A stretch of 63,283 nt of DNA, the filler included, from Anaerolineae bacterium (GTDB lineage: Bacteria; Chloroflexota; Anaerolineae; Epilineales; Epilineaceae): NCBI GenBank assembly GCA_029262755.1. It is 4 parts of 4 records of this genome, joined end to end, with 100 filler letters (N's around TTAATTAATTAA, not from the genome) between each part and the next. Parts side by side here need not be neighbours in the genome. Positions count along the whole stretch, not along the records: positions 40,638 to 58,099 come from JAJCYU010000304.1; 3 more parts are not named here. One strand, written 5' to 3'. The notes under the pieces were generated by a model, which saw nothing but the letters and a program-made list of their open reading frames with translations, made no database searches and was not told the origin of the DNA. Positions within the stretch are counted from its first letter, which is position 1, and each line of letters begins with the position of its first letter. This document shows positions 40,638 to 58,099 of this stretch, in pieces. The position numbers were made by a program, and so were the translations under genes.

Positions 40638-40638
40638 C

Positions 40639-43600
40639 GACCGCGGCCTGGACGGCAACCTGGTCGACCGGCTCGAGATCGTCGACAGCGCCTTCGTGGA
40701 CGCCAACACCGGTATTCTGATCGATGGCGGCACGGACCTTACGGTCCGCGACAACACCCTCGCCGACGGCAGCACCGCCCTCGATTTGCGCGGCGTCTTC
40801 CCTGGTACGCTGGCCTTCCCCGGCGGCGTCATGATCGACGGCAACGACTACAGCAACGCCAGCAGCAACGGCATCGAGCTGCGCACCATGAGCGATCTCG
40901 TCATCAGCGAGGGCGCGGCGCTCGGCACGAACGTCAACGTGCTCGACATGAACGGCATGCGCACGCTGACCTCCGTGTCGGGCAACGCTCTCTACCTGCG
41001 CGACGTCACGGACACGGGCGTGTTCACGACGGATCTCGGCTGGGATGGGCCCTTCCCGAATCGCGACGGCCGCGGCGTCTTTGGTGACCTGAGCTACAAC
41101 GAGCGGGTGACGTTGGACGGCATTACCGCCACACGGCGCGTCGAGGCGATTTGGATCGACCAAGGTCGCGACATCACCGTCACGAACAGTGCGTTGCAGG
41201 ACAACGGTACGTCGATCCGAATGAGCAGCGTGATCTCCTCCGGCGCAAGCTGCGCCTTGCCCGGCTGCGTGAACATCTCCAAGGTCGACTACAGCGACAG
41301 CGACACGGGCCTCTACCTGCTCACGATGGCGGACCTCGTCATCAGCCCGGGCACCGAGGCCGGCACGAATATCGACGTGCGCAACGTGGACGGTACGGAG
41401 ACGCTGACGCTTACGAAGGAATATGCGATCCGATTGAACAACGTGGACGACTCGCTGGTGACGGACGTCGATCTCAGCTGGCGCGGCGTCAGCTTCGATC
41501 GCCGCAGCGGCAGCGGACTCTACGTGCAGAGCGGCAGCGACCGGCTGGATGTCGAGGACGTCGTGATCCAAGAGCGAGAGCGCGGCATCTACATAAATAG
41601 CGGCACCGACCTCGAGATCCACGGTGCAGACCTGTTTGGCAGCGGCGATCAGACCAACAGCGGCTGGAACGCGGAGTCGGCGCTGCACCTCGAGAGCATC
41701 GACCCCGGCACCGACGCGCTGCCCGGCGGCGTGGACATCGATGGGCTGCTCTTTGGTGACGCGGAGGCCGGCATCTCCATGCGCTTCATGAACGCGCTGA
41801 CCGTCACCGACGGCAGCGAGCCGACGACAAACCTCGAGGTGCTGGACGGCAGCGGGATGGAATCGGTTGTCTACCCGATCTTCATTCGTGAGGTGGACGA
41901 CTCGCTCTTCGCGGATCTGGACCTCGACTGGACCGCCAGTGGCGTCCGTACCGGTCGCGGCTTCGGCATCGGCCACAGCGCGGATCGTGTCATCTTCCGC
42001 GACGGGACCATCACCAACCGCACCATTGGAATCTATGACAACGGCAACAACAACCAGGACTTCACGGCCACGGACAACGACCTCTCCAACAACGATACGG
42101 CGCTGCAGATCCACGGCCTCCAGCCCGGCTCCGGCGGCCTGACCGGCGGCCTGCTCGTGGAGGGCAACGACTACTCCAACTCCGACACCGCCATCTACAT
42201 GCTCAACGTCACCGGCCCGGTCACGATGTCGACCGGCGCCGTGGCCGGCACGAACTTCACGGTGACCAACGGCGGCGGTATGGAGACCACGACCTCGGCC
42301 CGCGTCTACGCCGTGCGCTGGAACAACGTCGACGACGGTCACATCGAGGGCCTCAACCTCGACTGGGAGGGCAGCAGCACCAGCAGCGCCGACAAGAGCG
42401 GTGATGGTTTCCGCTGCGACACTGGCTGCGACAACCTGAGCACGAAGGACCTCTCAGCGCGCAACCGGAGCATCGGTGTGTACGTGAGCAGCTCCTCCAA
42501 CGTCGAGCACGACGGGCTGGACCTGCGCCACAGCGGCCAGTCGTCGAATGGTGCGCTGTACTGGAATAGCAATTCCGGAACCCGACTGATCACCGACGTG
42601 CACTTCGCCGACTGTCCCTACGGCGCGTGGTTCGAGAACATGACCGGGATCATCGCCTCGGACGGCTCCTATACCGGCACGAACGTCTTCATTGCCGACG
42701 ACAGCGGGCTGTCGAGCATCACGAACATACCCATCCGCCTGCGCAACGTCGACGACTCGGTCTTCGTCGACCTCACGCTGAGCTACACGGGCACGAGCCC
42801 TTCCGGCGGCGGCATCCGCCACGACAGCAACACGTCGACCAACCTGATCATTCGCGACAACGAGATCCACAACCGCAACACACCTCTGTACTTGAGCAGC
42901 GTGCCGGGGGTGCAGGTGCTCAACAACAGCCTGCGCGACGCCAGCGGCGTGCAGATCGAGATCCGCACTTCCGACGACGCGGTGGTTAGCGGCAACGATC
43001 ACACGGGCAGCACGGGCAACGGCATGGGCTTCTACGACCTGGACCGGCTCATGCTCGACGGCGCCACCGGCCTCGACCGGATCACGGGCGACGTGCTCTA
43101 CCTCGACGACGTGCAGGACACGACCATCGACGGGCTGGACGCGCGCTACAGCGGCGCGGGGCGCACGGGGCGCGGCGTGTACTTCGAGGGCGGCAGCTTC
43201 CGCAACCGCAACATCACGATCACGAACTCGATCTTCATCAAGCGCAACCAGGGCATCTTCTGGCGGCGCGGCTACCGTAGCAGCGACGGCCCCGCCAACC
43301 TGACGATCAGCTGCAACCGGGTGCACGACAACAACGTCGGCATCGACATCGGCCTCGCCGGGCAGACGGACACCTCCTACAACCCCTCCGGCGTCGTCGT
43401 CTTCGACAACGTGATCGGGCGTGACATCAGCGGTACGGTGGCCTTCCAGGCCAACAACACATGGGGCATTCGCCGCAACACCGCTAACGTGAACGTGCCT
43501 CCGGTCACCACGTTCCCTGGCGAGCTGGTCTTGGCCGAGAACAACTACTGGGGCGAGCCGGACGGGCCCTCCAACCTGGGTGGCAGCGGCGACGACTACG

Positions 43601-46600
43601 ATGGCAACGTGGACGCCGACCCCTTCCTGACGATCCGCCCAGCCTGCGTCAACGAGGGGCCCGTGGCGCGCGACAACGCCTACAGCGCGCGTAGCTCGCG
43701 CAGCGACCTGCAGGGCCAGCTCATCACCGAGAACACGGGCCAGGGTGTCGACAGCGACCGCGACGCCGAGGACCTCGTCATCACCGAAGTCAACGGCTCG
43801 CCGGCCAACGTCGGCACGCCATTCTCGCTCGGTTCCGGCGCGACCTTGGACGTGGCGTCGAACGGCGTGTTCACCTACAACGCCACCACCTCACCCTCTC
43901 TACTGGCGCTGCCCAGCAACGCCTACTTCACAGAGACGATCACCTACACCCTGGTCGACCCGAACCTCTTCAGCAGCACGGCGGTGGTCACCTACAGCAT
44001 CCAGGGCTCGGAGAAGGATTACGGCGACCTGCCCGACAGCCCCTATCCGACCCTCAGCACGACGATGGGCGCCGTCCACTTGTTGGATGAGGCGACCTTC
44101 CTCGGTCTTTCGGCCGACGACGACCTGGACGGCCAGCCGGACGACAACGCGGGCCTCAACCCGAACGCGGCCGGCGGCGACGACCAGGACGGCAACGACG
44201 ACGAGGACGGCATCGCGATGCTGTCCACCATCCAGGCCGGCAACACGGTCACGGTGGAGGTGACCACCTCGGTGACCGGCTACTTGAGCGCCTGGTTCGA
44301 CTACGATGCGGACGGCTCGCTGGAACCCGCGGAGCGCTCGATCAGCGACACCATGCTCGTCAGCGGCACGAACACGGTGAACTTCACGGCGCCGGGCAGC
44401 GTGGCGCCGGAGCTCTTCGCCCGCTTCCGTTACGCTCGCAACAGCGGCGTGATCACCCAGCCCACGGGCCTGGTGATCGGCGGCGAGGTCGAGGACTACG
44501 TGCTGCAATCGGTCGGCAACCTCGTCTACCGAGACAACGGCGACGGCGGCGGGATCGCCACGAACGGCACACGCGAAGGCGCCGAGCCCGGCGTGCCTGG
44601 CGCTACCGTGGCGCTCTACGCCGGCGGCGACACGCCAGAGGTCGACACGCCGATCGCCACGACGACCACTGACGCTACCGGCGCCTATACCTTCACCGGC
44701 GTCTACAGCGGCAGCTACGTGGTCCAACTGGCCGCGGCGAACTTCGGCAGCGGCGGCGCGTTGGAGGGCCTCGGCTCCTCCACCGGCGCCGGCGATCCAA
44801 ACGCCGACCTGGACGAGGACGACGACGAGAACGGCCTCGACGTGGGCAGCCCGATCTCCGACGGCATTCGCTCGGGCATCGTCAACGTGGTGCCGGGCAA
44901 CCTCCCCACGAGCGAGGACGGAAACGACAACACGAACCTGACGGTGGACTTCGGCCTCGTCGAGTTTGACTTCGGCGACCTGCCCAGCCCGCTCTACGCG
45001 ACGCTGGCGAGCGAGAACGGCGCGCGCCACGTGCTGGACGGTGTGACCTTCCTCGGCGCCGCGGTCGACCGCGACTCCGACGGCCAGCCCTCGGCCGGTG
45101 CCGACGGCGACGATACGGACGCGGGCGGTGACGACGAGGACGGCGTGACCTTCCTGGAGCCGATGCTGCCCGGCAGCTCGGCGGATATCGACGTGGAGGC
45201 CTCGGTCGGCGGCTTCTTGACCGCCTGGGCCGACTGGAACGGCGACGGCTCCTTCGCGGGCACGGGCGAGCAGATTTTCAACGACGAATCCCTGTCGGCC
45301 GGCAGCAACAGCCTGAGCATCGCGGTGCCGGTGGGCTCCATCAGCAGCACGCTCTTCATGCGCTTCCGCTACGTGGCTTCCAGCGGCGTCGTCACCGCGC
45401 CCTTCGGCGTGGTCAGCGGCGGCGAGGTGGAGGACTACGCCCTCGGCGCCATCGGCGACCGCGTCTGGATCGACGACGGCACGGGCGGCGGCACGGCCGG
45501 CGACGGCATGTTGAACGGCGGCGAGAGCGGCGTCTTCGGCCTGGCGGTGGAACTCTACGATGCGGCGGACACGCCCGAGGTGGACGCGCCGCTGATCTCC
45601 ACGAGCACGGACCTGGCCGGCAACTACCGCTTCAGCGGCCTCCCCAATGGCACCTACGTGGTTCACGTGCCCGCCAGCGAGTTCGGCTCCGGCGCGTTGT
45701 TGGAGGCCTACGCCAGCTCGGTCGGCTGGGGCGACCCCAACCTCGATATTGACGAGGACATGGACGAGAACGGCGTGGACATCGGTGATCCGATCACGGA
45801 TGGCGTCAGCTCGGACATCATCGGCCTGGTCCTTGGCGCGATGCCGACCAGCGAGGACGGCGACCCGAATTCCAACCTGACCGTGGACTTCGCCTTCGTG
45901 CCGCAGGTCGATATGCGCTTGACCATCGACTGCGAGGGCGAAGACGGCAACCCGGACCAGGTGCGCGCCGGCGACCGTTGGTTGTGCGAGGTCACGGCGG
46001 AGAATCTGACGATCCATCCGGCGCCCAGCCCCGTGCTGACGCTGACGATCGGCACCGGCATCCTCTACCTCTCCGACACGGACACCTGTGTCTTCTCGGC
46101 CGGCACCGGGCCGGGCGGCAAGGATCAGCTCATCTGCGATCCCTTCGCCAGCCCGCCGCTCGCGACGGCGCTTGCGGGCATGGATCCGGAGATCGCGACG
46201 CTCATCGCGCGGCGGGCCGGCCTGGACGAAGCGATGTCCGCGGCTGGCCTGGACGATGTCGACGAACTGCAACAGGTTGTGAGCAACTTCTTTATCGCAT
46301 TCGCGATCCCCTTCGAGTTCGACGGCGACTTCGCGACGCTGGAGGGTCTGCTCACGAGTCTGGGCCTGGAAATCTTCCCGGCCAGCAACTCCGCGCAGGA
46401 CGTCGACGTGGTCCTGCCGCCGGATCCAACGGCGGTCATCGTCAGTCGCTTCGACGTGGCCGTCGATGGTCAGGACGTGCGCCTGGCATGGGAGACGGCC
46501 AGCGAAGCCAACGTGGCCGGCTTCCAGCTCTACCGCACGGCGGCCTCCGGCGACGATTGGGTATCCGTGGGCGAGGTCGTTGCGGCAGAGGGTGGCGCAT

Positions 46601-46779
46601 CGGACGGCTCGAGCTACGTGATCAAGGACCATCCGGGCGAGGGTGCGTGGCGCTACCGGCTGGAGGTTGTGCTGCTCGACGGAGGGACGCGGGACGGGGG
46701 CATCACCAGCATCAGCGTGGAGGCCGAGCCCGAGCCGGCATTGCCGTGGCGGGCGTGGCTGCCGAGCCTGATGCGCTAA
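40639..46779 (+). CDS. Giant surface protein, 5'-truncated: right-handed beta-helix repeats, Ig/VCBS-like domain, 2x(GEVED + SdrD-B), DUF11-like domain, WETASE domain, LP tail
   Basis: The frame is open from the contig start. Shows Asn/Gly-rich parallel beta-helix repeats and NNYWG; DYGDLP...DDEDG...GEVEDY twice; GNLVYRD/GDRVWID...TDxxGxYxF...NLTVDF; PTAVIVSRF...LAWETASEANVAGFQLYR; ends AWLPSLMR. Confidence 0.9.
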   Translation, partial: DRGLDGNLVDRLEIVDSAFVDANTGILIDGGTDLTVRDNTLADGSTALDLRGVFPGTLAFPGGVMIDGNDYSNASSNGIELRTMSDLVISEGAALGTNVNVLDMNGMRTLTSVSGNALYLRDVTDTGVFTTDLGWDGPFPNRDGRGVFGDLSYNERVTLDGITATRRVEAIWIDQGRDITVTNSALQDNGTSIRMSSVISSGASCALPGCVNISKVDYSDSDTGLYLLTMADLVISPGTEAGTNIDVRNVDGTETLTLTKEYAIRLNNVDDSLVTDVDLSWRGVSFDRRSGSGLYVQSGSDRLDVEDVVIQERERGIYINSGTDLEIHGADLFGSGDQTNSGWNAESALHLESIDPGTDALPGGVDIDGLLFGDAEAGISMRFMNALTVTDGSEPTTNLEVLDGSGMESVVYPIFIREVDDSLFADLDLDWTASGVRTGRGFGIGHSADRVIFRDGTITNRTIGIYDNGNNNQDFTATDNDLSNNDTALQIHGLQPGSGGLTGGLLVEGNDYSNSDTAIYMLNVTGPVTMSTGAVAGTNFTVTNGGGMETTTSARVYAVRWNNVDDGHIEGLNLDWEGSSTSSADKSGDGFRCDTGCDNLSTKDLSARNRSIGVYVSSSSNVEHDGLDLRHSGQSSNGALYWNSNSGTRLITDVHFADCPYGAWFENMTGIIASDGSYTGTNVFIADDSGLSSITNIPIRLRNVDDSVFVDLTLSYTGTSPSGGGIRHDSNTSTNLIIRDNEIHNRNTPLYLSSVPGVQVLNNSLRDASGVQIEIRTSDDAVVSGNDHTGSTGNGMGFYDLDRLMLDGATGLDRITGDVLYLDDVQDTTIDGLDARYSGAGRTGRGVYFEGGSFRNRNITITNSIFIKRNQGIFWRRGYRSSDGPANLTISCNRVHDNNVGIDIGLAGQTDTSYNPSGVVVFDNVIGRDISGTVAFQANNTWGIRRNTANVNVPPVTTFPGELVLAENNYWGEPDGPSNLGGSGDDYDGNVDADPFLTIRPACVNEGPVARDNAYSARSSRSDLQGQLITENTGQGVDSDRDAEDLVITEVNGSPANVGTPFSLGSGATLDVASNGVFTYNATTSPSLLALPSNAYFTETITYTLVDPNLFSSTAVVTYSIQGSEKDYGDLPDSPYPTLSTTMGAVHLLDEATFLGLSADDDLDGQPDDNAGLNPNAAGGDDQDGNDDEDGIAMLSTIQAGNTVTVEVTTSVTGYLSAWFDYDADGSLEPAERSISDTMLVSGTNTVNFTAPGSVAPELFARFRYARNSGVITQPTGLVIGGEVEDYVLQSVGNLVYRDNGDGGGIATNGTREGAEPGVPGATVALYAGGDTPEVDTPIATTTTDATGAYTFTGVYSGSYVVQLAAANFGSGGALEGLGSSTGAGDPNADLDEDDDENGLDVGSPISDGIRSGIVNVVPGNLPTSEDGNDNTNLTVDFGLVEFDFGDLPSPLYATLASENGARHVLDGVTFLGAAVDRDSDGQPSAGADGDDTDAGGDDEDGVTFLEPMLPGSSADIDVEASVGGFLTAWADWNGDGSFAGTGEQIFNDESLSAGSNSLSIAVPVGSISSTLFMRFRYVASSGVVTAPFGVVSGGEVEDYALGAIGDRVWIDDGTGGGTAGDGMLNGGESGVFGLAVELYDAADTPEVDAPLISTSTDLAGNYRFSGLPNGTYVVHVPASEFGSGALLEAYASSVGWGDPNLDIDEDMDENGVDIGDPITDGVSSDIIGLVLGAMPTSEDGDPNSNLTVDFAFVPQVDMRLTIDCEGEDGNPDQVRAGDRWLCEVTAENLTIHPAPSPVLTLTIGTGILYLSDTDTCVFSAGTGPGGKDQLICDPFASPPLATALAGMDPEIATLIARRAGLDEAMSAAGLDDVDELQQVVSNFFIAFAIPFEFDGDFATLEGLLTSLGLEIFPASNSAQDVDVVLPPDPTAVIVSRFDVAVDGQDVRLAWETASEANVAGFQLYRTAASGDDWVSVGEVVAAEGGASDGSSYVIKDHPGEGAWRYRLEVVLLDGGTRDGGITSISVEAEPEPALPWRAWLPSLMR

Positions 46780-46998
46780 CGTCCGGCGTGAAATCGATCG
46801 AAGAATACGGGGCCTGTCGTAGTGTGTCATCCACGGTGGGCCCCGGTCACACCTTCTCCACATCGTCACCGGGTCGTATCCTTGTCCATACCGTGGCGTT
46901 GCCACCGTGAGTAGAATCTAAGAATGATGACCGTGTGGGCCGGGGACGGCGGATGAGCCGTGTCCCGGCAATTATGTTTCGCACGGCACAGGGGGAAG

Positions 46999-49900
46999 AT
47001 GATGAAAGTCACGCGACCGGGCGTCGCGCGGTGGCGATTGGCCACTCGCGCCGGCGGCATTGCGGTGGGAATATTTACGCTCGTGCTCTTCAGCCTGAGC
47101 CTTGGACTGGAGCGCGAGGTCAGGGCGCAGCCCTCCGCGCTGCTCAACGGCAGCAAGACCTTCGCCGGCGGCGCATCCGAGCTGTTGGTGGAGAGCGGCC
47201 TCGAATTCGAGTACGCCATCAACTTCCGCTGCGCCAGCGTCATCAACAATTGTCTCGACGCCGAGATGAGCGACGTCCTGGACGGCAACCTCGAGTTCGT
47301 CTCGGCCTCGGCGCCGCCGGACCTGGTCGACAGCCTGACCCACAATCCGGGCACGAACGAGGTGCTGGTCGACTTCATCGAGCCGCTTCCCGCCGGATCG
47401 ACGGGCCAGATCCGTATCACCGTGCGCTTCCCACCGGGTACCACGCCCGGCATCACGGCCACCAACCGCGTCACCTCGACCACGATGGGGAACCCGCCCG
47501 AGGTCACGGATCCCGTCACGGCGACGGTGGACGGCACCTTCGAGATGTTCGCGAACAAGGCCTTCACCGGCGACGTCGACGACTTCGTGATCGATGAAAA
47601 CGGCGACGGCTTCGTCACCACCTATCAGCTGCAGATCTGCAGCCCCGACTCGATCGGCGGCGTGGAGCTGGACAATCCGCGCATCACGGACACGTTGCCT
47701 GCGGAAGCCACCTTCGTGTCCGCATCGGACGGTGGCGTCTACAACCCGACGTTGCACGAGGTCTCGTGGACGCATGTGAGCGACGGCGGCGGTCTGCCCG
47801 ACTCGATTCCCGTCGGCGGCTGCTTCGAGGTCACGCTCAACGTCGCCTTCGACCCGAACGGGCCCGACGGGATCCCGAGCACCGCGGACGATGCCGACCC
47901 GGGCGATGTGGTGACCAACTCCTTCGACGTCACCGGGGACCCGGCCGACGGCTCGCCGCCGGTCCTCCTCACGGACCCGTTGACGCAGATCCTGGCGCCT
48001 CCCTCCGGCGCGGCCTCGCCGCAGAAGAGCTCCACGAGTCCCTCCACCTATGCGCCGACGGGACTCACCGAGGAGCTTCCGGGCGGCCCCATCACCTACA
48101 CCCTGGAGTACGCCAACGTAGGGACGCTCATCATCACAGACGTCACCGTGGTGGACCTCATCCCTGCCGGCATCCTCCTGCAAGAGATCCTGATCGGCCC
48201 CGCAAGCGACGGCGTGGTCGACGGCTTCTACATGACCAACCTCACCACCACCTGGCAGGCCCTGCCGGGGAATTCCTATGCGGCGCTGACCACCGTGCCC
48301 ACCTCCAGCCTCGGCCTTGCGCCCACCGAGACGGTGACCGCCATCCGCTATGACCTGGGGGACTTTCCCCTCGGCAGCGCGTGGAGCGACGGCGGCTTCA
48401 CCTCCATCGTCTCGCCCAGCATCACGCCGGAGCTGCTGATCGAGAATTGCGTCACCGTCACCGGCACCATCCAGGGCGACACGATGCTGGAGGATCTGGT
48501 CGAGTCGGACTGCGAGACGATCAACGTCATCGACGCGCGCTCGATCCCGGAGATCAGCAAGAGCGCGATCGATGAGAGCGGGGCCAACATCAGCTCGCTC
48601 GAGCCGCTTGACGTCTTCACCTACGTGCTGGACATCGGCAACGACGGCGTGGCGCAGCAGGCCCTCTTCGCGCCCATCACCCTGACCGACCTGGTGCCGT
48701 CCGATCTCATCGTCGTGGTCCCCGGACCGGGCGCCGGCGACGGCACGGGCTGGCAGACGGCCGCGCCGACGGACACGTGGTTCGCCTATTCCGCCAACGA
48801 CGGCGCGCCGATCCCCACCTCCACGCTAATCAGCAGTTTCAGCGGCACGCAGACCCTCGCCGAGTTCGCGTGGCCAGGGGCCGACCTGGCGCCCGGCGCG
48901 CAGCGCGTCATCAGCTTTGCGGTCAAGGTCCGCGTGGGCACGCCGCCTTCTGTGATCAGCAACCAGGGCACCTTCGCCTGGGATCCCGCCACCCTCAACC
49001 CGTTGCAGTTTGATTGCGAGGGGGCGGCCGCCAATGCCTGTGCGGACTCGGTGGACACCCCGGTCGTGATCGCGCCTTCCGCCCGCTCGGAGAAGTTCGT
49101 GCGTGGCGAGACCTCGCTCGACCTCGTGACGACGGACTTCAAGAAATTCGACGAGACGATCGAAGGCGGAGACGTCGATTGGAAGATCGTCATCACCAAC
49201 ACGAGCAACATCACGGCGAGCGAGTTGATCGTCTACGACATCTTCCCCTATGTGTCGGACACGGGCGTGATCGACCCGTCGGCGCGGGGAAGTGAGTGGA
49301 AGCCGATCCTGCATACACCGATCTCGGCGCCGACGGGCATTCCGTTGATCGTCGAGTACAGCCTGAGCACCAATCCCTGTCGTCCCGAAGTAGTGCCCAG
49401 CGGCCCGCCCGGCTGCGTGGACGACTGGACGACGACGTTCCCGTCGACGACCGTGGCGGAAATCAGCGCGGTGCGTCTCCTCTTCTGCAACGACGAGGCC
49501 AAGACGGATTGCCTGGAGCTTGGTCCGGACAGCGAGACCGTGCCGGGCGGCGTCGTGGAATTCGGATGGCATATGGTCGCGCCCAACAGCCTGGTCTCGG
49601 GCACGATCGCGTGGAATAGCTTCGGCTTCGCGATGAATGTGGGCGGCGAACCACTGCTGCCGTCCGAGCCGATTCGCGTTGGGATCCGCGGCGTTTCGCC
49701 CGATCTGCGAACAGGCGCCACGGTCGGCAACTTCGTGTTTTTCGATGTGCAGGGCCAGCAGGACGACGGCATCCAACAGCCCGTAGAACCCGGCGTCAAC
49801 AATGTTCGTGTCGAGCTCTGGGACTTCAATGGCGGCACGCCCGTCCTCGTCGACTACCGCTACACAGGGGACAACTTCGTCGGTGATCCGGGCTACTATC

Positions 49901-52900
49901 TCTTTGAAGATGTTGTGACCGGCACCTATTTCACGCGCTTCTTCCCGCCGGACGGCTACACGGTCAGCCCGCCAAACGAGGGCGGCGATGACGCGCTCGA
50001 CAGCGACGGCGAGGCTTTCGGCACCGATCCGATCTTCGGCGACTACTACGATTCCACGACCTTCTCCGTGGTCTCCGGGACGGACGACCGCACCTGGGAC
50101 TTCGGCATCTGGCTCGACACGGACTATGGCGACGCGCCCTACGACGGTGGTGGCGATCTGTACCCGACCCAGGCCTCCTTGTTGGTTTCGCCTGCACTCG
50201 CCGCGCGCCACGTGATCAGTCCGGGTCTGAGCTTGGGCGGCGTGGTGGATGATGAGACCGACGGCCAGCCACAGGCGAAGGCCTTGGGCGATGACGACGG
50301 TAGCGCCGGCGATGACGAGGACGGGGTGGCCTTCCCGGAATTTATTCAAACGGCCGCTCGACCGGTCGGCATCCTGTCCCCGGGGAGCAACCCGCAGTTG
50401 ACCATCAGCGCCACCGTGCCGCCGGGCGAGGATGCCTTCCTCAACGCCTGGATCGACTGGAACGGCGACGGCGATTGGGACGACGCGGGCGAGCAGATCG
50501 CGACGGACGTCACTGTGGTTAGCGGCACCCAGACGCTGTCGATCTTGGTTCCCGTCGGCGCCGTCACCGGCACGACGCACGCACGCTTCCGCCTGAGCAC
50601 GGAAGAAGGCCTACTACCCACGGGCACGGCCCTGGACGGCGAGGTCGAGGACTATGCGGTCTTTATCCTGGCGCCGCCGGTGAAATCGCTGATCGCCACA
50701 TCGGAGGCGCACACCGACGGCGCCGATCCGGAGCAGCTGGTGGTGGGCGAAATCGCACGCTATCGCGTCGAGATTCCGGTACCCGAAGGAGTCATGCCCG
50801 GCTTCGTCATCACCGAGGTGCTCAGTCCGGGCCTGCAATTCATCGACGATGGCACGGCCACGCTGGCCCTCGTTTCGACGGACGGAATGACCTCTACCGA
50901 CACGGCGCTCGACGCGGCCGCGGTGTCCGGCGACGGGTCGACCCTGGGAACCATCACGCCGACCTTCGTGATACCCGGCGCCAACATCAGCCCCGCCTCC
51001 CCCGGCAGCGGCGACGACCCCGTATTCTCTCTCGGCGACGTGACCAACCCGGACGCGGACGCCGATCTGGAATACGTGGTGCTGGAACACAACGTCATCG
51101 TGGTCAACGAATTGGCGGTGCAGGACGGGCTGCTGCTCACCGACCGCTTCGACGTGCAGTTCGGGACGGCCCTTCGTTCGACCGAGGTCATCACGGTCGA
51201 GGTGGTCGAGCCGGTGCTCACGATCGACAAGTCCCTGGACGTGCCGGCCGTGCTCGGCCCGGGCTCGCCGGTGACCTATACCCTGGTGGTCACGCACGAC
51301 GGGATCACGCGCGCCGACGCCTTCGACGTGGTTATCACCGACCCGATGCCCAGCGAGCTGATCAACGTGACGGTCGTCTCGGTGACCGCGGATATCAGCC
51401 CCATACCGACTTCCTCCGTGACGTCGAATCTCGTGCGCGTGCCCGGTGGAACGGCGGCGTTCGACCTGCCGCAGGGCGCGGCGGTGACCGTCACGATCAC
51501 CGCGGATATCGGGCCCAGTGTGACCGCGGGTACGTTCATCACCAACCCCGCGCTGGTCGGATGGACGACACTGCCGGACGACGGCACCCCCGGCAACCCG
51601 ACGGGCTCGTTGCCGCCCGGCAACTCGGGTGACGCGGATGGGGAGCGCAACGGCGACGGCGGCGTCAACGACCAGTTGCGCAGCGACCTGGCGGACTTCT
51701 TCATCAACGCGGAGTGGGGCGACCTGCCCGACTTCTACCCGACCCTGTTGGCCGACGGCGGAGCGGCGCACCTGATTCCGGTTACCGGAAACGTGCGGCT
51801 GGGCCTGCTGCTGGATGCGGACATCGACGGCCAGCCGAACATCGGCGCGGACGGCGACGACACGGATGGCGATGGCGACGACGAGGACGGCATCGTCTTC
51901 CTCGATCCGCTGCAGCCCGGGCAGCCCTCGCGCGTGCAGGTGACCACCAGTGGCGCAGGCTTCCTGAATGCCTGGTTCGACTTCGACGGCGACGGGATTT
52001 TGGGTGCCGGCGAGCAGGTGGCGCTCGACGCGCCTTTGCCGGCGGGCACCTCCATTATCACCGTCACGCCGCCCTTTGCGCCGATCTCGACCACCGTGTA
52101 CAGCCGCTTCCGGTACACGACCGATCCGGGCGATGCCACGACCCCGGGCGGGAACGCCTTTAGCGGTGAGGTCGAGGACTACGCCCTGATGAGCCTCGGC
52201 GACCTCCTGTGGAACGACAACGGCGTCGGCGGCGGCACGCCGGACGACGGCATCCTCAACGGAGCCGAGCCGCCCCTGCCATTCGTTGAGGTCCAGTTGT
52301 ATCGCGTGGGCGACAGCGTGGGCGTGGACCCGCCACGGGCGGCGACAACCACGGATGCCTCGGGCAACTACATCTTCACCGGGCTCGAGCCGGACGACTA
52401 CATCGTCTATATCCCACCGAGCCAGTTTGCGGTCGGCGCTCCGTTGGAGGGATTCTTCTCCTCCACCGGCGACGGTGACCCGAACCTCGATCTGGACGAG
52501 GGCATGGACGAGAGCGGGCTGGACAGCATCGATCCGGCCACCACCGGAATCGCCTCCGCCCCGGTCACGCTCACGCCGGCCGGTGAGCCGACGGGCGAAG
52601 ACGGCGATTCAAACTCCAACCTCACCGTGGACTTCGGATTCACGCCGGCAACCGACCTCACGATCGACAAGGATTGCGTCTCCGAGAGCGGCGACCCGGA
52701 CTTCGTGAATGCCGGCGAGCGCTGGATCTGCACGGTATCGATCGAGAATCTGGGTCCGAACGACGCGCCGAACATGCGTGTCACCGATACCGTCGGCGCC
52801 GGCCTGCTCTTCAGCAGCGAGACGGACACCTGTGTCTTCTCGGCGGGGACCGGCGTGGATGGACGCGACGAATTGCTCTGCCGCCCGGCGGGCACGGCGC

Positions 52901-53415
52901 CCGACTGGATCCTACCGGTGGGCAGCACCGCGGCCTTCAGCATCGCCTTCGCGGTGCCCTTCGATTACGACGACGACTTCGCAATCAACGACGCGGCCGT
53001 CGATCAGGCCGGCATCGAACTCGATCCGAACAACAACAGCACGCGTCACGCGGACATCGTGCGGCCGTTGGCTCCCACGGGGGTCAGCGTGATCCGCTTT
53101 GAGGCCGCCGCCGACGAAGAAACGGTGACGATCGAGTGGGAGACCGCCAGCGAGCTCGACCAGAGCGGGTTCCGCCTGATGCGGGTCGCCACGGTGGCTG
53201 GGCGATGGGAGGAAGTCGGCGAGCTCGTGCCATCCAGAGGCGGCGCCTCGCGCGGTGCGAGTTACCGTGTGGACGACCGACCTGGTGAAGGCCGCTGGAT
53301 CTATCGCCTCGAGGCCGTTGCCCTTGACGGTGGGGTGCGGGACTTTGGTCCGGTCGAGGTTTCGGTGTCACCGCAGCCGCGTATCTACCTGCCTTATGCG
53401 ATGTTGCGTCGCTAG
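46999..53415 (+). CDS. Giant surface protein: DUF11/pilin-isopeptide-like repeats, SdrD-B, 2x GEVED, WETASE domain, IYLP tail
   Basis: Signal peptide ending VRA-Q; repeated K-S/T...PG..[IV]TY[TV][LI]...N...V.D.[IL]P modules; GEVEDY twice; PTGVSVIRF...IEWETASELDQSGFRLMR; ends RIYLPYAMLRR. Confidence 0.9.
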   Translation: MMKVTRPGVARWRLATRAGGIAVGIFTLVLFSLSLGLEREVRAQPSALLNGSKTFAGGASELLVESGLEFEYAINFRCASVINNCLDAEMSDVLDGNLEFVSASAPPDLVDSLTHNPGTNEVLVDFIEPLPAGSTGQIRITVRFPPGTTPGITATNRVTSTTMGNPPEVTDPVTATVDGTFEMFANKAFTGDVDDFVIDENGDGFVTTYQLQICSPDSIGGVELDNPRITDTLPAEATFVSASDGGVYNPTLHEVSWTHVSDGGGLPDSIPVGGCFEVTLNVAFDPNGPDGIPSTADDADPGDVVTNSFDVTGDPADGSPPVLLTDPLTQILAPPSGAASPQKSSTSPSTYAPTGLTEELPGGPITYTLEYANVGTLIITDVTVVDLIPAGILLQEILIGPASDGVVDGFYMTNLTTTWQALPGNSYAALTTVPTSSLGLAPTETVTAIRYDLGDFPLGSAWSDGGFTSIVSPSITPELLIENCVTVTGTIQGDTMLEDLVESDCETINVIDARSIPEISKSAIDESGANISSLEPLDVFTYVLDIGNDGVAQQALFAPITLTDLVPSDLIVVVPGPGAGDGTGWQTAAPTDTWFAYSANDGAPIPTSTLISSFSGTQTLAEFAWPGADLAPGAQRVISFAVKVRVGTPPSVISNQGTFAWDPATLNPLQFDCEGAAANACADSVDTPVVIAPSARSEKFVRGETSLDLVTTDFKKFDETIEGGDVDWKIVITNTSNITASELIVYDIFPYVSDTGVIDPSARGSEWKPILHTPISAPTGIPLIVEYSLSTNPCRPEVVPSGPPGCVDDWTTTFPSTTVAEISAVRLLFCNDEAKTDCLELGPDSETVPGGVVEFGWHMVAPNSLVSGTIAWNSFGFAMNVGGEPLLPSEPIRVGIRGVSPDLRTGATVGNFVFFDVQGQQDDGIQQPVEPGVNNVRVELWDFNGGTPVLVDYRYTGDNFVGDPGYYLFEDVVTGTYFTRFFPPDGYTVSPPNEGGDDALDSDGEAFGTDPIFGDYYDSTTFSVVSGTDDRTWDFGIWLDTDYGDAPYDGGGDLYPTQASLLVSPALAARHVISPGLSLGGVVDDETDGQPQAKALGDDDGSAGDDEDGVAFPEFIQTAARPVGILSPGSNPQLTISATVPPGEDAFLNAWIDWNGDGDWDDAGEQIATDVTVVSGTQTLSILVPVGAVTGTTHARFRLSTEEGLLPTGTALDGEVEDYAVFILAPPVKSLIATSEAHTDGADPEQLVVGEIARYRVEIPVPEGVMPGFVITEVLSPGLQFIDDGTATLALVSTDGMTSTDTALDAAAVSGDGSTLGTITPTFVIPGANISPASPGSGDDPVFSLGDVTNPDADADLEYVVLEHNVIVVNELAVQDGLLLTDRFDVQFGTALRSTEVITVEVVEPVLTIDKSLDVPAVLGPGSPVTYTLVVTHDGITRADAFDVVITDPMPSELINVTVVSVTADISPIPTSSVTSNLVRVPGGTAAFDLPQGAAVTVTITADIGPSVTAGTFITNPALVGWTTLPDDGTPGNPTGSLPPGNSGDADGERNGDGGVNDQLRSDLADFFINAEWGDLPDFYPTLLADGGAAHLIPVTGNVRLGLLLDADIDGQPNIGADGDDTDGDGDDEDGIVFLDPLQPGQPSRVQVTTSGAGFLNAWFDFDGDGILGAGEQVALDAPLPAGTSIITVTPPFAPISTTVYSRFRYTTDPGDATTPGGNAFSGEVEDYALMSLGDLLWNDNGVGGGTPDDGILNGAEPPLPFVEVQLYRVGDSVGVDPPRAATTTDASGNYIFTGLEPDDYIVYIPPSQFAVGAPLEGFFSSTGDGDPNLDLDEGMDESGLDSIDPATTGIASAPVTLTPAGEPTGEDGDSNSNLTVDFGFTPATDLTIDKDCVSESGDPDFVNAGERWICTVSIENLGPNDAPNMRVTDTVGAGLLFSSETDTCVFSAGTGVDGRDELLCRPAGTAPDWILPVGSTAAFSIAFAVPFDYDDDFAINDAAVDQAGIELDPNNNSTRHADIVRPLAPTGVSVIRFEAAADEETVTIEWETASELDQSGFRLMRVATVAGRWEEVGELVPSRGGASRGASYRVDDRPGEGRWIYRLEAVALDGGVRDFGPVEVSVSPQPRIYLPYAMLRR

Positions 53416-53523
53416 GTCGGCGAGACGATTCGAAAGTGCGACGCGGGTCGTCGGGAAGCCGGCGGCCCGCGGTGTTCGTGACCCAAGGCACTTCCATTGA
53501 CCCCCCATGGGGGAATCCCTAGC

Positions 53524-56500
53524 ATGATCCGCATGAAGATTGGGACACATGGTACAAGCCTTGTTGCGGCCGCCGGCCTGGCGGCCGTGTGGCTTGGCGC
53601 GGTCGTGGCTCCCGGCATGGCGATTTCGACCGTCTCGGCCGACGCCCCGGAGGTCGTGGCCGACGGGGGCGCCACGCCGCTTCAGGGCATGCCCACGCTG
53701 CGGTATGCGGACGACGCGCGTATCGTCGTTCGATGGATGGCGCCCGATTCGGCCAGTCCCAGGGTCGGGCATGGGGCCACCCTGATGGCGCGGCACGGCG
53801 TACTGTTGGCCCTACCGCCGGAGGGCGAGGCGGGGCTGCGCTGGAAATCCCGGGGCGCGCGGACCGTGGCGGGCACCGTGTCGCCGGCGATCGCCGCGGA
53901 ATGGGAGGCTGCGCCGGCGCCGGCCGTTCGGCTTGTCGAGTTGGGCTGGTTTCGTGGCCAACGTCTTGCCCGCATGGAATTCGCCCCGTATCGCGTTGAT
54001 CGGGGGACCGGGTTGGGCACGGTGACCCTCCTTGAGCAGATCGAGGCCACCGTGGATCTGGTGCCCCCTACCGGCGGCGGCCCGAACCATCACGAGGTGG
54101 CCAGCACGGCTACCAGCGTTCGTTCCGCCATCGCACCGGACCCGTTGCTCGATGGCGTGCTGGGGGACCGACCGTTGAATGCGGTGCAGGCCGAAGCGTG
54201 GCGCCTCGCGCGCGGGCCTTCCGCTGTGGCGCTGGATCAAATGGCGGAGGCACCCAGCGCCGCGGGACCGGTGTGGAACCTACATGTGGCCAGGGACGGG
54301 ATGGTGCGCGTGACCGGTGCGGCCCTGGCTGAGGCCGGCGGCGACATCGCGGCCGTCGATCCGCGAGAACTCTGGCTCTATGACGACGGCGAGCCGGTGG
54401 ACGTACTCATGACGGGGGACGGCGACGGGGCCTTCGACGCCAACGACAGCCTGCTGTTCTACGGTCGCGCCACAAATTCACGCTATTCGACGACGCGGGT
54501 CTATCAGCTAGGCCAGGGTGCAGAGCCGGGGCCGCGCATGGCGACGAGGGACGTGAGGCCGGCGGGCAGCGCGGCGCAGACGTGGACGCAGGCCGTCGTC
54601 CGGGTCGAGCAGGACGAGGAGTACATCGCAGAACTGCCGCGCGATTGGGCCATCCGACCGTCGCACGCGTCGACCGTCGATCGCTGGTATGGGCGGCAGC
54701 TCTCGGCGCCGGACTCGACGGCGGTCGTGGTCACGCTGCCGGCGGTGGCGCCGGGCGATTGGACCGGCACGCTGCGTGTGGCGGTGGTCGGCAAGACCCT
54801 GGACTACGGCGTTGATCCCGATCATCACCTGCGGCTGAAGGTCGGCGATGTCGTACTGCGGGACGCCTTCTGGGATGGGCGCGATGCGGTTCAGGAGATC
54901 ACGGCCCCGTTGCCTTCTGCGCTGATCGACGGCGACACGTTGACGTTGACGCTCGAGGCGGGCGGCGAGAGCGCAGCGGTCTTCGATCAGTTCTACATCG
55001 ACTGGCTCGAGGTGGACTACCGCCGGCGGCTCGAGGCGGCCGGCGGGCGGCTGGTGCTGGAAGCCCTGTCCGAGGCGACGGACATCCTGGTGGGCGGTCT
55101 GGAGGATGCCGCCGTGGCCGGCTTCGACATCAGCGATCCCCACCATCCGGTCAAGGCGCAGGGCATGGGGATGAGGAGGGCGGATGGCGCCTTCGAGGCG
55201 CGCTTCCGGTCCGGCGGACAGGTAGCGGCAGGTGCTCCCGGCGAGCGCTACCTTCTGCTTTCGCAGGCTCGGTACGCGGCGCCTGCGCGCATCGAGGCCC
55301 GCCCCGCGACGGACCTGCGTGACACGGAGCGAGGCGCAGATTGGCTAGTGATCAGTCATCCGGATTTCGTCGATGCCGTGCAGCCGCTCGCGACGCACCG
55401 CGCAGCGCTGGGGTATCGGGTCGCCGTCGTCGACCTTGTGGACGTTTACGATGCCTTCGCTGGAGGCAATCCGCGCCCCGAGGCAATCCGCGACTTCCTT
55501 GCCTACGCCTACCAGACGTGGGCGGCGCCGGCGCCGTCGATGGTGCTGCTCGTGGGCGATGGGACAGCCGACCCTCGGCGGCGGACGGAGGGGACCCAGC
55601 CGACCTTCGTGCCCCCCTTCCTGCGCGTGGCCGATCCCTGGTTGGGTGAGATTGCGTCGGACAACGCCTATGTCACGTTGGTGGGCGACGACCTGATGCC
55701 GGACATGGCACTCGGCCGGCTGCCGGCGAACACGCCGGAACAGGCCGCGGACATGGTGGCCAAGATCCTGGGCTATGAGACGGCGCCGCCGCCGGGAGAC
55801 TGGCAGGAGCGCCTGCTCTTCGTGACGGATGAGCCCGATTCGGCCGGCGACTTCTACGCCTTCTCTGACGAGATCGCGGACAACCACGTGCCCGCCGACT
55901 ATCAGGTCGAGAAGATCTATCACATGCTCACCCACCCGGACCGGACGGCGGCCAGGCAGGCGATCATCGACGAGATCAATCGTGGCGTGTTGCTGACCCA
56001 GTACATTGGGCACGGGCGCACACTTAACTGGGCGGTCGAAAATCTCCTGCGACGGGCGGACATGGACGACCTGACCAATGGCGGGCGATTGCCCGTGATG
56101 TTGGACATGACCTGCATGACCGGGCGCTTCGCGGAACTTGAACGAAGCGCCATCGCTGAGGATGCGGTCCGTGCGCCCAATGGCGGGGCCATCGCCGCCT
56201 ACTCGCCGACAGGCTTTGGGGTGGCGACGGGCCACGATCCCATGAACAGGGCCTTTCTCGACGCCCTGTTGGGGGAGGGGATGCGGCCATTGGGCGCCGT
56301 CGTGTTGCGCAGCAAACTGCATCTTCTGGAGGAGACACGTTCGCACCACGATCTCGTCGAGACGTTCTCGCTTTTGGGCGATCCTGGTCTGGAGGTGGTG
56401 CTTCCCTTCGGGCCGCCGACGCCTGTGGAGAGCACGACGCCGCGGGCCGCAACGCCCACGCCGGAGCCTACGGCCGGAACCGCGCCCGCACCCGGCGCGA

Positions 56501-56700
56501 CCCCGACGCCCGGTTCAACCCCCGAGCAGACGCCCACACCGACGACCACGGCCGAGCCGGAGCGCAGCCCGACGGCGCCGCCATCCGAGACGCCGACGTC
56601 GGCGTCGGATACTCCGGTGGCACCCACCGCGACCGGCCGGCCGTTGGCGCCCTCGATATACCTGCCGATGGTGGTGCGGCGGCGGAAAGGTGTTTCGTAG
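53524..56700 (+). CDS. C25-family (gingipain/PorU-like) cysteine peptidase with PT linker and IYLP tail
   Basis: Signal peptide; propeptide-like LGWFRGQRLA; DGMVRVTG...LLFYG...RYSTTRVY; ADWLVISH, VYDAFAGG, AIRDFL, VLLVGDG, SDNAY and PDMALGRLPA. Catalytic His in YIGHG (56011) and Cys in MTCMTG (56113). NGGAIA and LLGDPGL follow; ends SIYLPMVVRRRKGVS. Confidence 0.93.
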   Translation: MIRMKIGTHGTSLVAAAGLAAVWLGAVVAPGMAISTVSADAPEVVADGGATPLQGMPTLRYADDARIVVRWMAPDSASPRVGHGATLMARHGVLLALPPEGEAGLRWKSRGARTVAGTVSPAIAAEWEAAPAPAVRLVELGWFRGQRLARMEFAPYRVDRGTGLGTVTLLEQIEATVDLVPPTGGGPNHHEVASTATSVRSAIAPDPLLDGVLGDRPLNAVQAEAWRLARGPSAVALDQMAEAPSAAGPVWNLHVARDGMVRVTGAALAEAGGDIAAVDPRELWLYDDGEPVDVLMTGDGDGAFDANDSLLFYGRATNSRYSTTRVYQLGQGAEPGPRMATRDVRPAGSAAQTWTQAVVRVEQDEEYIAELPRDWAIRPSHASTVDRWYGRQLSAPDSTAVVVTLPAVAPGDWTGTLRVAVVGKTLDYGVDPDHHLRLKVGDVVLRDAFWDGRDAVQEITAPLPSALIDGDTLTLTLEAGGESAAVFDQFYIDWLEVDYRRRLEAAGGRLVLEALSEATDILVGGLEDAAVAGFDISDPHHPVKAQGMGMRRADGAFEARFRSGGQVAAGAPGERYLLLSQARYAAPARIEARPATDLRDTERGADWLVISHPDFVDAVQPLATHRAALGYRVAVVDLVDVYDAFAGGNPRPEAIRDFLAYAYQTWAAPAPSMVLLVGDGTADPRRRTEGTQPTFVPPFLRVADPWLGEIASDNAYVTLVGDDLMPDMALGRLPANTPEQAADMVAKILGYETAPPPGDWQERLLFVTDEPDSAGDFYAFSDEIADNHVPADYQVEKIYHMLTHPDRTAARQAIIDEINRGVLLTQYIGHGRTLNWAVENLLRRADMDDLTNGGRLPVMLDMTCMTGRFAELERSAIAEDAVRAPNGGAIAAYSPTGFGVATGHDPMNRAFLDALLGEGMRPLGAVVLRSKLHLLEETRSHHDLVETFSLLGDPGLEVVLPFGPPTPVESTTPRAATPTPEPTAGTAPAPGATPTPGSTPEQTPTPTTTAEPERSPTAPPSETPTSASDTPVAPTATGRPLAPSIYLPMVVRRRKGVS

Positions 56701-57086
56701 GGTCCTCCTCGGAGGGCTCGTCCGGAAAATGAGAATTGACTGAGTGCGCCCGTATCTCGGCGCGTTCACTTCTCGTTCTTACTCGAGGGCGTTTCATGCG
56801 CGCTCACGTAGTTTTTCGTCTCTATGAGCGGCCAAGGTTCGGCGGCTCCTGTCAATTTGAATGGTTCTTTGTGTTCGGCTCACAGGCCGATCGCGCCGCT
56901 GAAGGCCAGGCGTGCGCCATGGATCGCGGCCTGTTGCAGTGCTTCGGGGAGACAAGGGGGAAGCCAGGAATGACATTTAACCAGCGACGGCGCCTCTTGG
57001 CGCCGGCCGTCTGATTCTCTGCTCCTCCGACCGATGTGTCGAAGCACTTCACACACCACACCCGTCCGCTGACAGGGGAACACCCG

Positions 57087-58099
57087 ATGTCCATTGCCGC
57101 GAATCGCCTCATCCACCTCACCCGACGCAGCGGTCTTGCCGCGCGTGTCGTCGCCGCGCTGGTTGCGGTCGGCCTGGTCGCGGCCCTGCCCATGGGGGCA
57201 GTGCGTCCCGATGTGCCGCCGGATGACGCGGTGCGTGCCGCCGCGCTTCTGGCGCCGGACAACATCAGCGGAGGGCCGGACGACTTCGGCTACACCTTCC
57301 GGGACATCGAGGTGGATCCGGGCATTGGTGAGGAGTGGCATAACGCATGCGCAACGGGCACGGTGATCAGCGGCACCACGCTCGGCGACGACGGCTCCTT
57401 CACCATCTCGGGCTTCCCCTTCCCCTTCAAGTATTACGGTGTGCAGCGCGAGGGTGCCGACCTGACGGTCAGTGCCAACGGCTTCGCCTCCTTCGCGGCC
57501 GCGGGCGCCGCGAATCCCGACAATGTCGGCATCCCGGACGCGGCGGATCCCAACGACGCGGTCTATCCCTTCTGGGATGACCTGGATCCCACGAACGCCC
57601 TCACGATCACCGGCATCGCGCCCATCTTGTGTCATCAGACCATCGGCACGCCCGGCAACCGCAAGCTGGTCGTGCAGTGGCAGGAGATCCCTTTCTCGCC
57701 GACCCCGGATCACGTCAGCGCTGAGGCGGGCACGGACGAGGACGGTTACGTCACCTTCCAGGCACAGTTCGTCGAGGGCGGCGCGATTCGCTTCGAATAT
57801 CAGCAGCCCCTGGGCTGTACGCTCAGCGATTGTGTGCGCGGTTTCGGCGAGTCGGCCACCGTGGGCATCGAGAGCAGCCTGGCGCTCGGACCGACGGGCC
57901 TGCAGTACTTGCACGACGAGCCGGTGCTGGAGTCGAAGAAGGAGGGGCAGATCATCTCCTCCATCCTCTTCGAGCCGCCACAGCTGGCCATCGACAAGAG
58001 CTGTTTCGCGGCCGAGACCCTGCTGTCCAATCCGGGGCCCGGAACCCACCAGAGCATCGTCCTCGCGGGCCAGCAGTGGGTCTGCGAGATCCGGATCAC
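57087..58099 (+). CDS. Exported protein with a GGPDxFGY-type N-terminal beta domain and the start of a Cys-DUF11 module; truncated
   Basis: Signal-like hydrophobic segment; GGPDDFGYTF, GFPFPFKYYG, VSANGF, YPFWDDLDP and SATVGIE; then LAIDKSC...AGQQWVCEIRI, as in the giant proteins. Confidence 0.8.

Follow-up and report, generated by a model that had tools for sequence, protein, structure and literature searches.

A candidate PorU-like protein-sorting module in Chloroflexota: a C25 peptidase and the FN3-like WETASE domain

[quoted passage not shown] The bonds cleaved by PorU are of the type T/E/D/N-G/A/S (PMC10202324), and the mapped Porphyromonas gingivalis sites have Thr as the P1 residue in 9 of 17 cases, e.g., EPT/AT and NGT/AV (PMC4560394, Table 2). 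PorU-type transpeptidation is described for the diderm T9SS alone in the literature found. The window analyzed here is a stretch of 63,283 nucleotides from an Anaerolineae bacterium (assembly GCA_029262755.1) in which several contigs are joined; its positions 40638 to 58099 represent all of contig C304 (JAJCYU010000304.1; 17,462 bp). This contig encodes two giant proteins with the same C-terminal domain, referred to here as WETASE, and, directly downstream, a PorU-like C25 peptidase. A functional link of some kind between WETASE and such peptidases is very probable. The reading tentatively favored here, with slightly less than even confidence, is that they form a two-part surface protein-sorting module that uses PorU-type chemistry without a T9SS, with WETASE as the CTD equivalent and the C25 protein as the putative sortase.

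The features of C304 are as follows (open reading frame, ORF).

40639..46779, + strand: cargo A, 2046 aa or more, incomplete at its 5' end (ORF and domain search)
46423..46725, + strand: WETASE (FN3-like) domain of A, opening with DPT/AV; putative, predicted cut at 46431/46432
46726..46776, + strand: LP tail of A (..AWLPSLMR), YLP-box-like; taken alone, no NCBIfam match
46960..53415, + strand: cargo B, 2151 aa (ORF and domain search)
53071..53370, + strand: WETASE domain of B, opening with APT/GV; putative cut at 53079/53080
53371..53412, + strand: LP tail of B (..IYLPYAMLRR)
53497..56700, + strand: PorU-like C25 cysteine peptidase, 1067 aa
55345..56394, + strand: Peptidase_C25 domain (PF01364), with His839 at 56011-56013 and Cys873 at 56113-56115
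56653..56679, + strand: YLP-box of the C25 protein (NF050076, 15.2 bits against a cutoff of 15)
57036..58099, + strand: gene D, without a Pfam family, cut at the contig end

This layout agrees with the first-pass annotation of the window, which had described four co-oriented genes on one contig, two proteins of more than 2000 aa with a common C-terminal unit, and, downstream of them, a C25 peptidase with intact His (YIGHG) and Cys (MTC) residues. The WETASE domains of A and B are 51% identical, and the final ~600 aa of the two proteins are 45% identical. Cargo A contains beta-helix repeats, two GEVED and two SdrD_B domains, a DUF11-like unit, WETASE, and the LP tail. In cargo B, a signal-peptide-like start is followed by DUF11 repeats, SdrD_B, two GEVED domains, WETASE, and the LP tail.

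The genome contains five copies of WETASE, and all five either precede C25-type sequence or share a reading frame with it. Two are on C304, one is located directly upstream of a C25 gene on contig C246, and two, on C186 and C362, are fused in frame to the N-terminal moiety of the peptidase, inside which both contigs end. Among 60 giant C25 homologs (1869 to 5000 aa), retrieved with a query that lacked WETASE, the domain is found upstream of the C25 in 54; repeat scoring gave 52 with a model built from the five copies of this genome and 53 with a model from Chloroflexota loci alone. Ahead of WETASE, these proteins often have the set of GEVED, SdrD_B, and DUF11 cargo domains that is also seen in A and B, and 59 of the 60 keep both His and Cys. 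The Propeptide_C25 domain is present in all 6 giants that lack WETASE vs. 1 of the 54 that have it. The catalytic domain is the last one in 37 of the 60, and 2 have a YLP-box. In genome G241, 16 of 16 WETASE matches lie in one open frame with a C25.

The two components also tend to occur in the same genomes. Listed as genomes with both, with WETASE only, with a strong C25 only, and with neither, the counts are 20/0/2/128 for 150 genomes of the phylum (E values of at most 1e-12 for WETASE, its counts being lower bounds, and 1e-30 for C25), 22/3/3/12 for 40 closer relatives (WETASE at E<=1e-5 and C25 above 140 bits, a cutoff of our own), and 36/1/11/53 for 101 genomes from a second phylum, that of G190 (E<=1e-10 and 1e-20, respectively). 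Within genera g8 and g15, the presence or absence of WETASE and C25 changes together. WETASE is encoded in 42 of 76 C25 loci, and in 25 of the 33 that extend for at least 4 kb on both sides. It is about 100-fold more frequent near C25 genes, with 57 copies in 0.94 Mb vs. 53 in ~99 Mb, counted at differing thresholds. A pair within 8 kb is found in 10 of the 20 positive genomes of the phylum; 41 of its 53 WETASE copies have no C25 within 8 kb, and G003 (69% complete) has 30 WETASE matches and 1 strong C25. In 7 of 119 Chloroflexota C25s, the enzyme carries its own WETASE directly behind the catalytic domain (GDPAL..PTAV). Among cultured organisms, plasmid pHAU01 of Herpetosiphon aurantiacus DSM 785 encodes the cargo Haur_5066 together with Haur_5106, an intact enzyme. 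Association of WETASE with C25 homologs by co-occurrence and synteny had been set beforehand as the test of the first-pass proposal; it was found, and fusion in addition.

Several loci deserve a mention. An own WETASE behind the C25, in several cases with two tandem C25 paralogs, is found in L097, L098, L099, L104, L106, L115, L117, L120, L121, L125, and L138. On pHAU01 (L140:9913-14937), the gene for Haur_5066 is followed by one for a protein that has a Pro/Thr stalk, an FPVTA motif, and a membrane tail and then by a sortase gene.

WETASE consists of about 100 aa and is a predicted FN3-fold domain without a Pfam or NCBIfam family. The AlphaFold2 model of the copy in B (pLDDT of 92) has seven strands, the first of which begins at the Gly right after the Thr of the PT motif. 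Structure searches with this model return FN3 domains as top matches (Z of ~11, root mean square deviation of 2.0 to 2.4 over 91 to 97 residues); the T9SS CTD is not among the matches listed. None of 38 WETASE members matched the PF18962/TIGR04183-type CTD in a Pfam search (best Pfam E value, 5e-4), none of 40 matched the type A CTD in an NCBIfam search (best E value, 3e-3), and no sequence relative was found in the PDB (best E value, 0.37). With a single copy as the query, 5849 clusters at 50% identity are retrieved at E<=0.001. The ESM Atlas contains three unnamed clusters at 0.90 to 0.94, from Bacteroidota, Acidobacteriota, and Chloroflexota, which are a lead only.

WETASE is combined with many terminal tags. 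In a survey of the best 150 of the 5849 clusters, 146 of which were scored, no more than 45 residues follow the domain in 122 representatives, and in some almost none. These short tails are of the LP type in 43 cases and of other types in 79; among the remaining representatives are some with membrane-type tails, Pro/Thr stalks, C25 fusions, or type A CTDs. The type A CTD scores over its cutoff in 4 of 20 WETASE proteins scanned and is annotated in 4 of 6 plasmid records with WETASE; in those from Hymenobacter and Flammeovirga, WETASE is placed before the CTD. The statement in the first-pass annotation that many T9SS cargos carry a similar domain just before the CTD is borne out for Bacteroidota. 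Other tails behind WETASE, namely, a TWGxIK tail and Cys-Gly-plus-membrane tails, are seen in P0233, P0182, P0235, P0309, P0313, P0317, and P0327; tails of this group have zero matches to NCBIfam sorting models.

In a small class of proteins, whose genes often neighbor those for C25 enzymes, WETASE is N-terminal, placed directly behind a signal-like stretch, and leads into a long Pro/Thr stalk (L016:6094-7215; L080 and L116; P0268, P0294, P0311, and P0318). This class is a candidate anchored partner, acceptor, or inhibitor. Giant DUF11 proteins of up to 11,555 aa, encoded on contigs C209, C108, C44, C384, and C205 of G000, have no WETASE and share a different C-terminal domain (NLVGLG.VAVER.G..PGDESKAFE).

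In the first-pass annotation, the LP tail had been described as occupying the position of the CTD. A role for it in place of the CTD, as the signal for the C25 enzyme, is not supported. The LP-tail pattern is found in 137 ORFs of at least 300 aa in this genome, vs. 8 at a control position and vs. 5 WETASE domains. It is also found in 400 kb of G013 (8 vs. 1 at the control position), a relative in which no WETASE and no PorU-like C25 were detected; in 400 kb of G028 the counts are 1 and 0. The tail appears to be a generic YLP-box, separate from the WETASE/C25 module, and was rejected as the signal of the enzyme. Since it is generic and genome-wide, the part of CTD equivalent probably falls to WETASE and not to the tail. 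A serine hydrolase of the beta-lactamase family, with a Pro/Thr stalk and an LP tail, is encoded at 59014-60621 (- strand) on contig C310 and is unrelated to the C304 locus.

The proposal made in the first-pass annotation, a C25 enzyme dedicated to WETASE cargos and independent of T9SS, agrees with the fusions, synteny, and co-occurrence described above and with the searches for T9SS and outer-membrane markers, which found none. No matches to the SprA, GldN, and GldM profiles were found in the genome (no positive control gave a match for these three either), PorV was not detected by tblastn, and Omp85/BamA was not detected while its controls gave matches in 7 of 14. TIGR04183 (type A CTD) has zero matches on C304. 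The first-pass annotation, which saw neither a T9SS CTD nor por genes, had named a normal T9SS in the genome as evidence against its own idea. Matches to GldK are partial and far below the cutoff and were for this reason rejected as PorK. Contig C168 encodes two proteins with CTD-like tails; at 48.7% GC vs. 66.8% for the genome, it is probably foreign, and these proteins were not taken as a sign of T9SS. Contigs C25, C423, C286, and others, with 35 to 39% GC, are possibly foreign as well. In this genome, which is 84% complete, the T9SS partners and the outer membrane are probably absent.

In Chloroflexota, WETASE starts with P-T-[AGS]-[VAI]. In two sets dominated by this phylum, the Pro, Thr, and small residue are found in 44, 42, and 42 of 51 copies (scored among 53) and in 44, 45, and 45 of 51 copies (scored among 57). 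Of the 55 fused copies, 46 have Thr ahead of the first strand, as do ~85% of the Chloroflexota copies. Because PT/[AGS]V matches the PorU sites, its Thr is the putative cut residue. In the proposed mechanism, cargos would be exported across a single membrane, and the C25 enzyme would recognize the folded C-terminal WETASE, as suggested by fusion and co-occurrence. Its catalytic Cys would then cleave PT/[AGS]V behind the Thr, where the domain begins, and the acyl-enzyme would be resolved by an amine of the envelope, leaving the adhesin anchored; this last step is modeled on PorU alone. The acceptor is probably not A-LPS because no outer-membrane marker was found. WETASE would have the CTD's role, with the YLP tail as a generic tag apart from it. 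One enzyme could serve many unlinked cargos in Chloroflexota; in other phyla, where cargo, WETASE, and enzyme are often a single polypeptide, this polypeptide would process itself.

A number of observations weigh against this mechanism. PorU cleavage is described as sequence independent (PMC4804311), which makes the motif match weak evidence; Pro and Thr are common at domain boundaries of these proteins. Pro follows the putative cut in a Hymenobacter cargo (PLPV), in 8 of the 55 fused copies, and in 32 of the 174 representatives, both fused copies of this genome (TNPV) included, and this fits the PorU preference poorly; the fused copies have no clear preference for a small residue at this position. 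In Bacteroidota, where a true CTD follows WETASE, PorU would be expected to cut behind WETASE and leave it on the cargo. No acceptor and no PorZ-like partner have been identified. The 20 positive genomes of the phylum belong to about four families and are kin rather than independent cases. G024 (96% complete, 70 contigs) has six WETASE copies on its contigs C16, C18, and C26 (L010) and no C25 by family or protein query, and a strong C25 is also missing in G027, G038, and G224. In G022 and G034, which belong to the same genus as G024, the enzyme is encoded directly downstream of a cargo.

Alternatively, WETASE might be a retained docking or stalk domain that binds the C25 protein or the envelope noncovalently, with any cut made behind it to remove a YLP, membrane tail, or CTD, comparable to the IgSF domain that precedes the CTD in RgpB. 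The interchangeable tails (type A CTD, YLP, or hydrophobic membrane type), the Pro after the putative cut, and the Chloroflexota C25s with WETASE in the place where RgpB has IgSF all speak for such a role. However, in many cargos only a few residues follow WETASE, which leaves nothing to remove, and most copies retain the Thr ahead of the first strand; docking appears rather unlikely. Recognition and cut could also be as proposed here but end in hydrolysis, so that the adhesin is shed or matured instead of being anchored. PorU itself frees some cargos (PMC10202324), a cut in the fusion proteins would simply free the passenger, and with BamA not found, no acceptor of the A-LPS type is expected. 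Yet the cargos are adhesin-like (DUF11, SdrD_B, and GEVED) and have no other anchor, and the enzyme keeps the whole PorU N-terminal moiety; shedding appears unlikely. Finally, WETASE might be an ordinary FN3 module of surface protein islands beside a general, gingipain-like protease, linked to it by gene clustering and shared ancestry. The fold is indeed generic, the domain is widespread, most giant proteins of this genome lack it, and there are exceptions such as G024. Against this stand the fixed position of WETASE in the fusions, its near-exclusive alternation with the propeptide, the concordant changes in genera g8 and g15, and the enrichment near C25 genes; a generic association of this kind is very improbable. 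The module with WETASE as the CTD equivalent remains the reading preferred here, and C304 appears to carry a genuine variant of the sorting step known from PorU and the CTD, undescribed in the literature found and putative in its mechanism.

A full-text literature search, which mostly covered sources other than subscription journals, retrieved no description of C25/PorU homologs paired with such a domain outside T9SS, and the excerpts of PMC3482391 and PMC11674741 contain nothing on C25-WETASE pairing. If the proposal is correct, this stand-alone version would be an additional route of covalent protein display and would offer a role for an abundant unnamed domain and for many giant proteins annotated as "C25 family," as well as an origin for the attachment step of T9SS. 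A broader scenario, speculative and on balance doubtful, is that WETASE and the PorU-like C25 make up an old, widespread, self-contained sortase system whose parts act in trans in Chloroflexota and, in other phyla, in cis within fusions that process themselves; the T9SS attachment step would have been recruited from it later, with the CTD added behind an older tag that many Bacteroidota cargos have kept. The proposal makes a sharp prediction, a cut after PT, and H. aurantiacus DSM 785 has both cargo and enzyme.

As for the remainder of C304, its genes are separated by 180, 81, and 335 bp. The start of A is lost at the contig edge, which places its export signal outside the view, and export of B, the C25 protein, and D is predicted by eye from hydrophobic N-terminal stretches. 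By eye, the final ~30 residues of D look like the beginning of the DUF11-like unit found ahead of WETASE in both A and B, and D may be a third cargo. Comparison of C304 with contigs of a DNA run that is a possible source of the assembly shows two single-letter differences and zero indels. A promoter and terminator scan (4 and 9 sites vs. 1.3 and 6.9 in shuffled sequences) was not used.

The C25 protein of C304 has a signal-peptide-like start, a degenerate propeptide region, a PorU-type N-terminal moiety, the catalytic domain (2e-92 and 310.7 bits against PF01364, cutoff of 23), a Pro/Thr stalk, and the YLP-box. Its closest named homologs are from Anaerolineae and other Chloroflexota. The YIGHG and MTC motifs align with the equivalent motifs in PorU (6za2) and RgpB (1cvr), and His839 and Cys873, 34 residues apart, are invariant in 73 of 73 aligned homologs. 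A genome scan with this protein as the sole query returned no relative, and a single-sequence fold of its core (pLDDT of 38) was not used. A FastTree tree of 95 catalytic domains, in which every fourth near homolog was taken and C289 and P0052 were left out for low coverage, was rooted on two rows with a gingipain-like layout and included no true gingipain. Both PorUs fall among the WETASE-fused C25s in this tree (support of 84 to 92, long branches), a weakly supported placement that is a hint only. The C289 protein (G000:C289:4768-9555, - strand, locus L009), 1596 aa long and of the PQQ/FN3 type, has a C25-like domain whose His and Cys are, by eye, replaced (NLAGPG and VANSG). Partial C25 matches of this kind, in frames of 1700 to 2500 aa, are found in 14 of 16 genomes of the same family, including genomes without WETASE, and this protein type appears to be a conserved pseudo-peptidase.

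Among the known systems, the first to compare is the YLP-box, a putative sorting motif: the tail of the C25 protein scores over the cutoffs of both NF050076 and NF053834, and those of A and B give no match. Gram-positive sortases (PF04203) cut their LPXTG substrates after Thr and carry out transpeptidation, as proposed here for C25, and two of them score over the cutoff in this genome. However, C25 is a different enzyme family, and neither A nor B has an LPXTG motif or the membrane segment and basic tail typical of such substrates. The gingipains RgpB and Kgp (1cvr and 4rbm) share the catalytic domain and dyad (2e-13), and their propeptide is also found in most standalone C25 homologs. Their match is confined to residues 719 to 985, and in gingipains the propeptide abuts the catalytic domain, whereas here the catalytic domain begins only at residue 617, with ~370 extra residues between the two, as in PorU. 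PorU2 (NF052324, "putative T9SS sortase PorU2"), a PorU-related C25 of putative function whose model is defined for a T9SS context, matches residues 262 to 968 with 199.5 bits against a cutoff of 450. The PorU and PorU2 models of NCBIfam together span residues 262 to 970, both below their cutoffs. PorU itself is the top PDB sequence match (6za2, 4e-21), ahead of RgpB, and its model (NF033707) is matched over positions 10 to 735, N-terminal moiety included, with 269.9 bits against a curated cutoff of 420. In the other direction, a profile of the C25 family covers two annotated PorUs, starting at residue 14-32 and ending at 769-795 (E of ~1e-78). By these profile scores, the C304 enzyme is PorU-like but not PorU: PorU ends in a type A CTD of its own, whereas this enzyme ends in the Pro/Thr stalk and YLP-box. 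Unlike PorU, enzymes of this family are often fused to their own cargo, and the tag is FN3-like, not a CTD by profile. Like PorU, some of them carry a copy of the tag themselves, and where PorU has beta-sandwich substrates, the candidate substrates here end in a predicted seven-stranded beta-sandwich that follows a Thr/small-residue motif.

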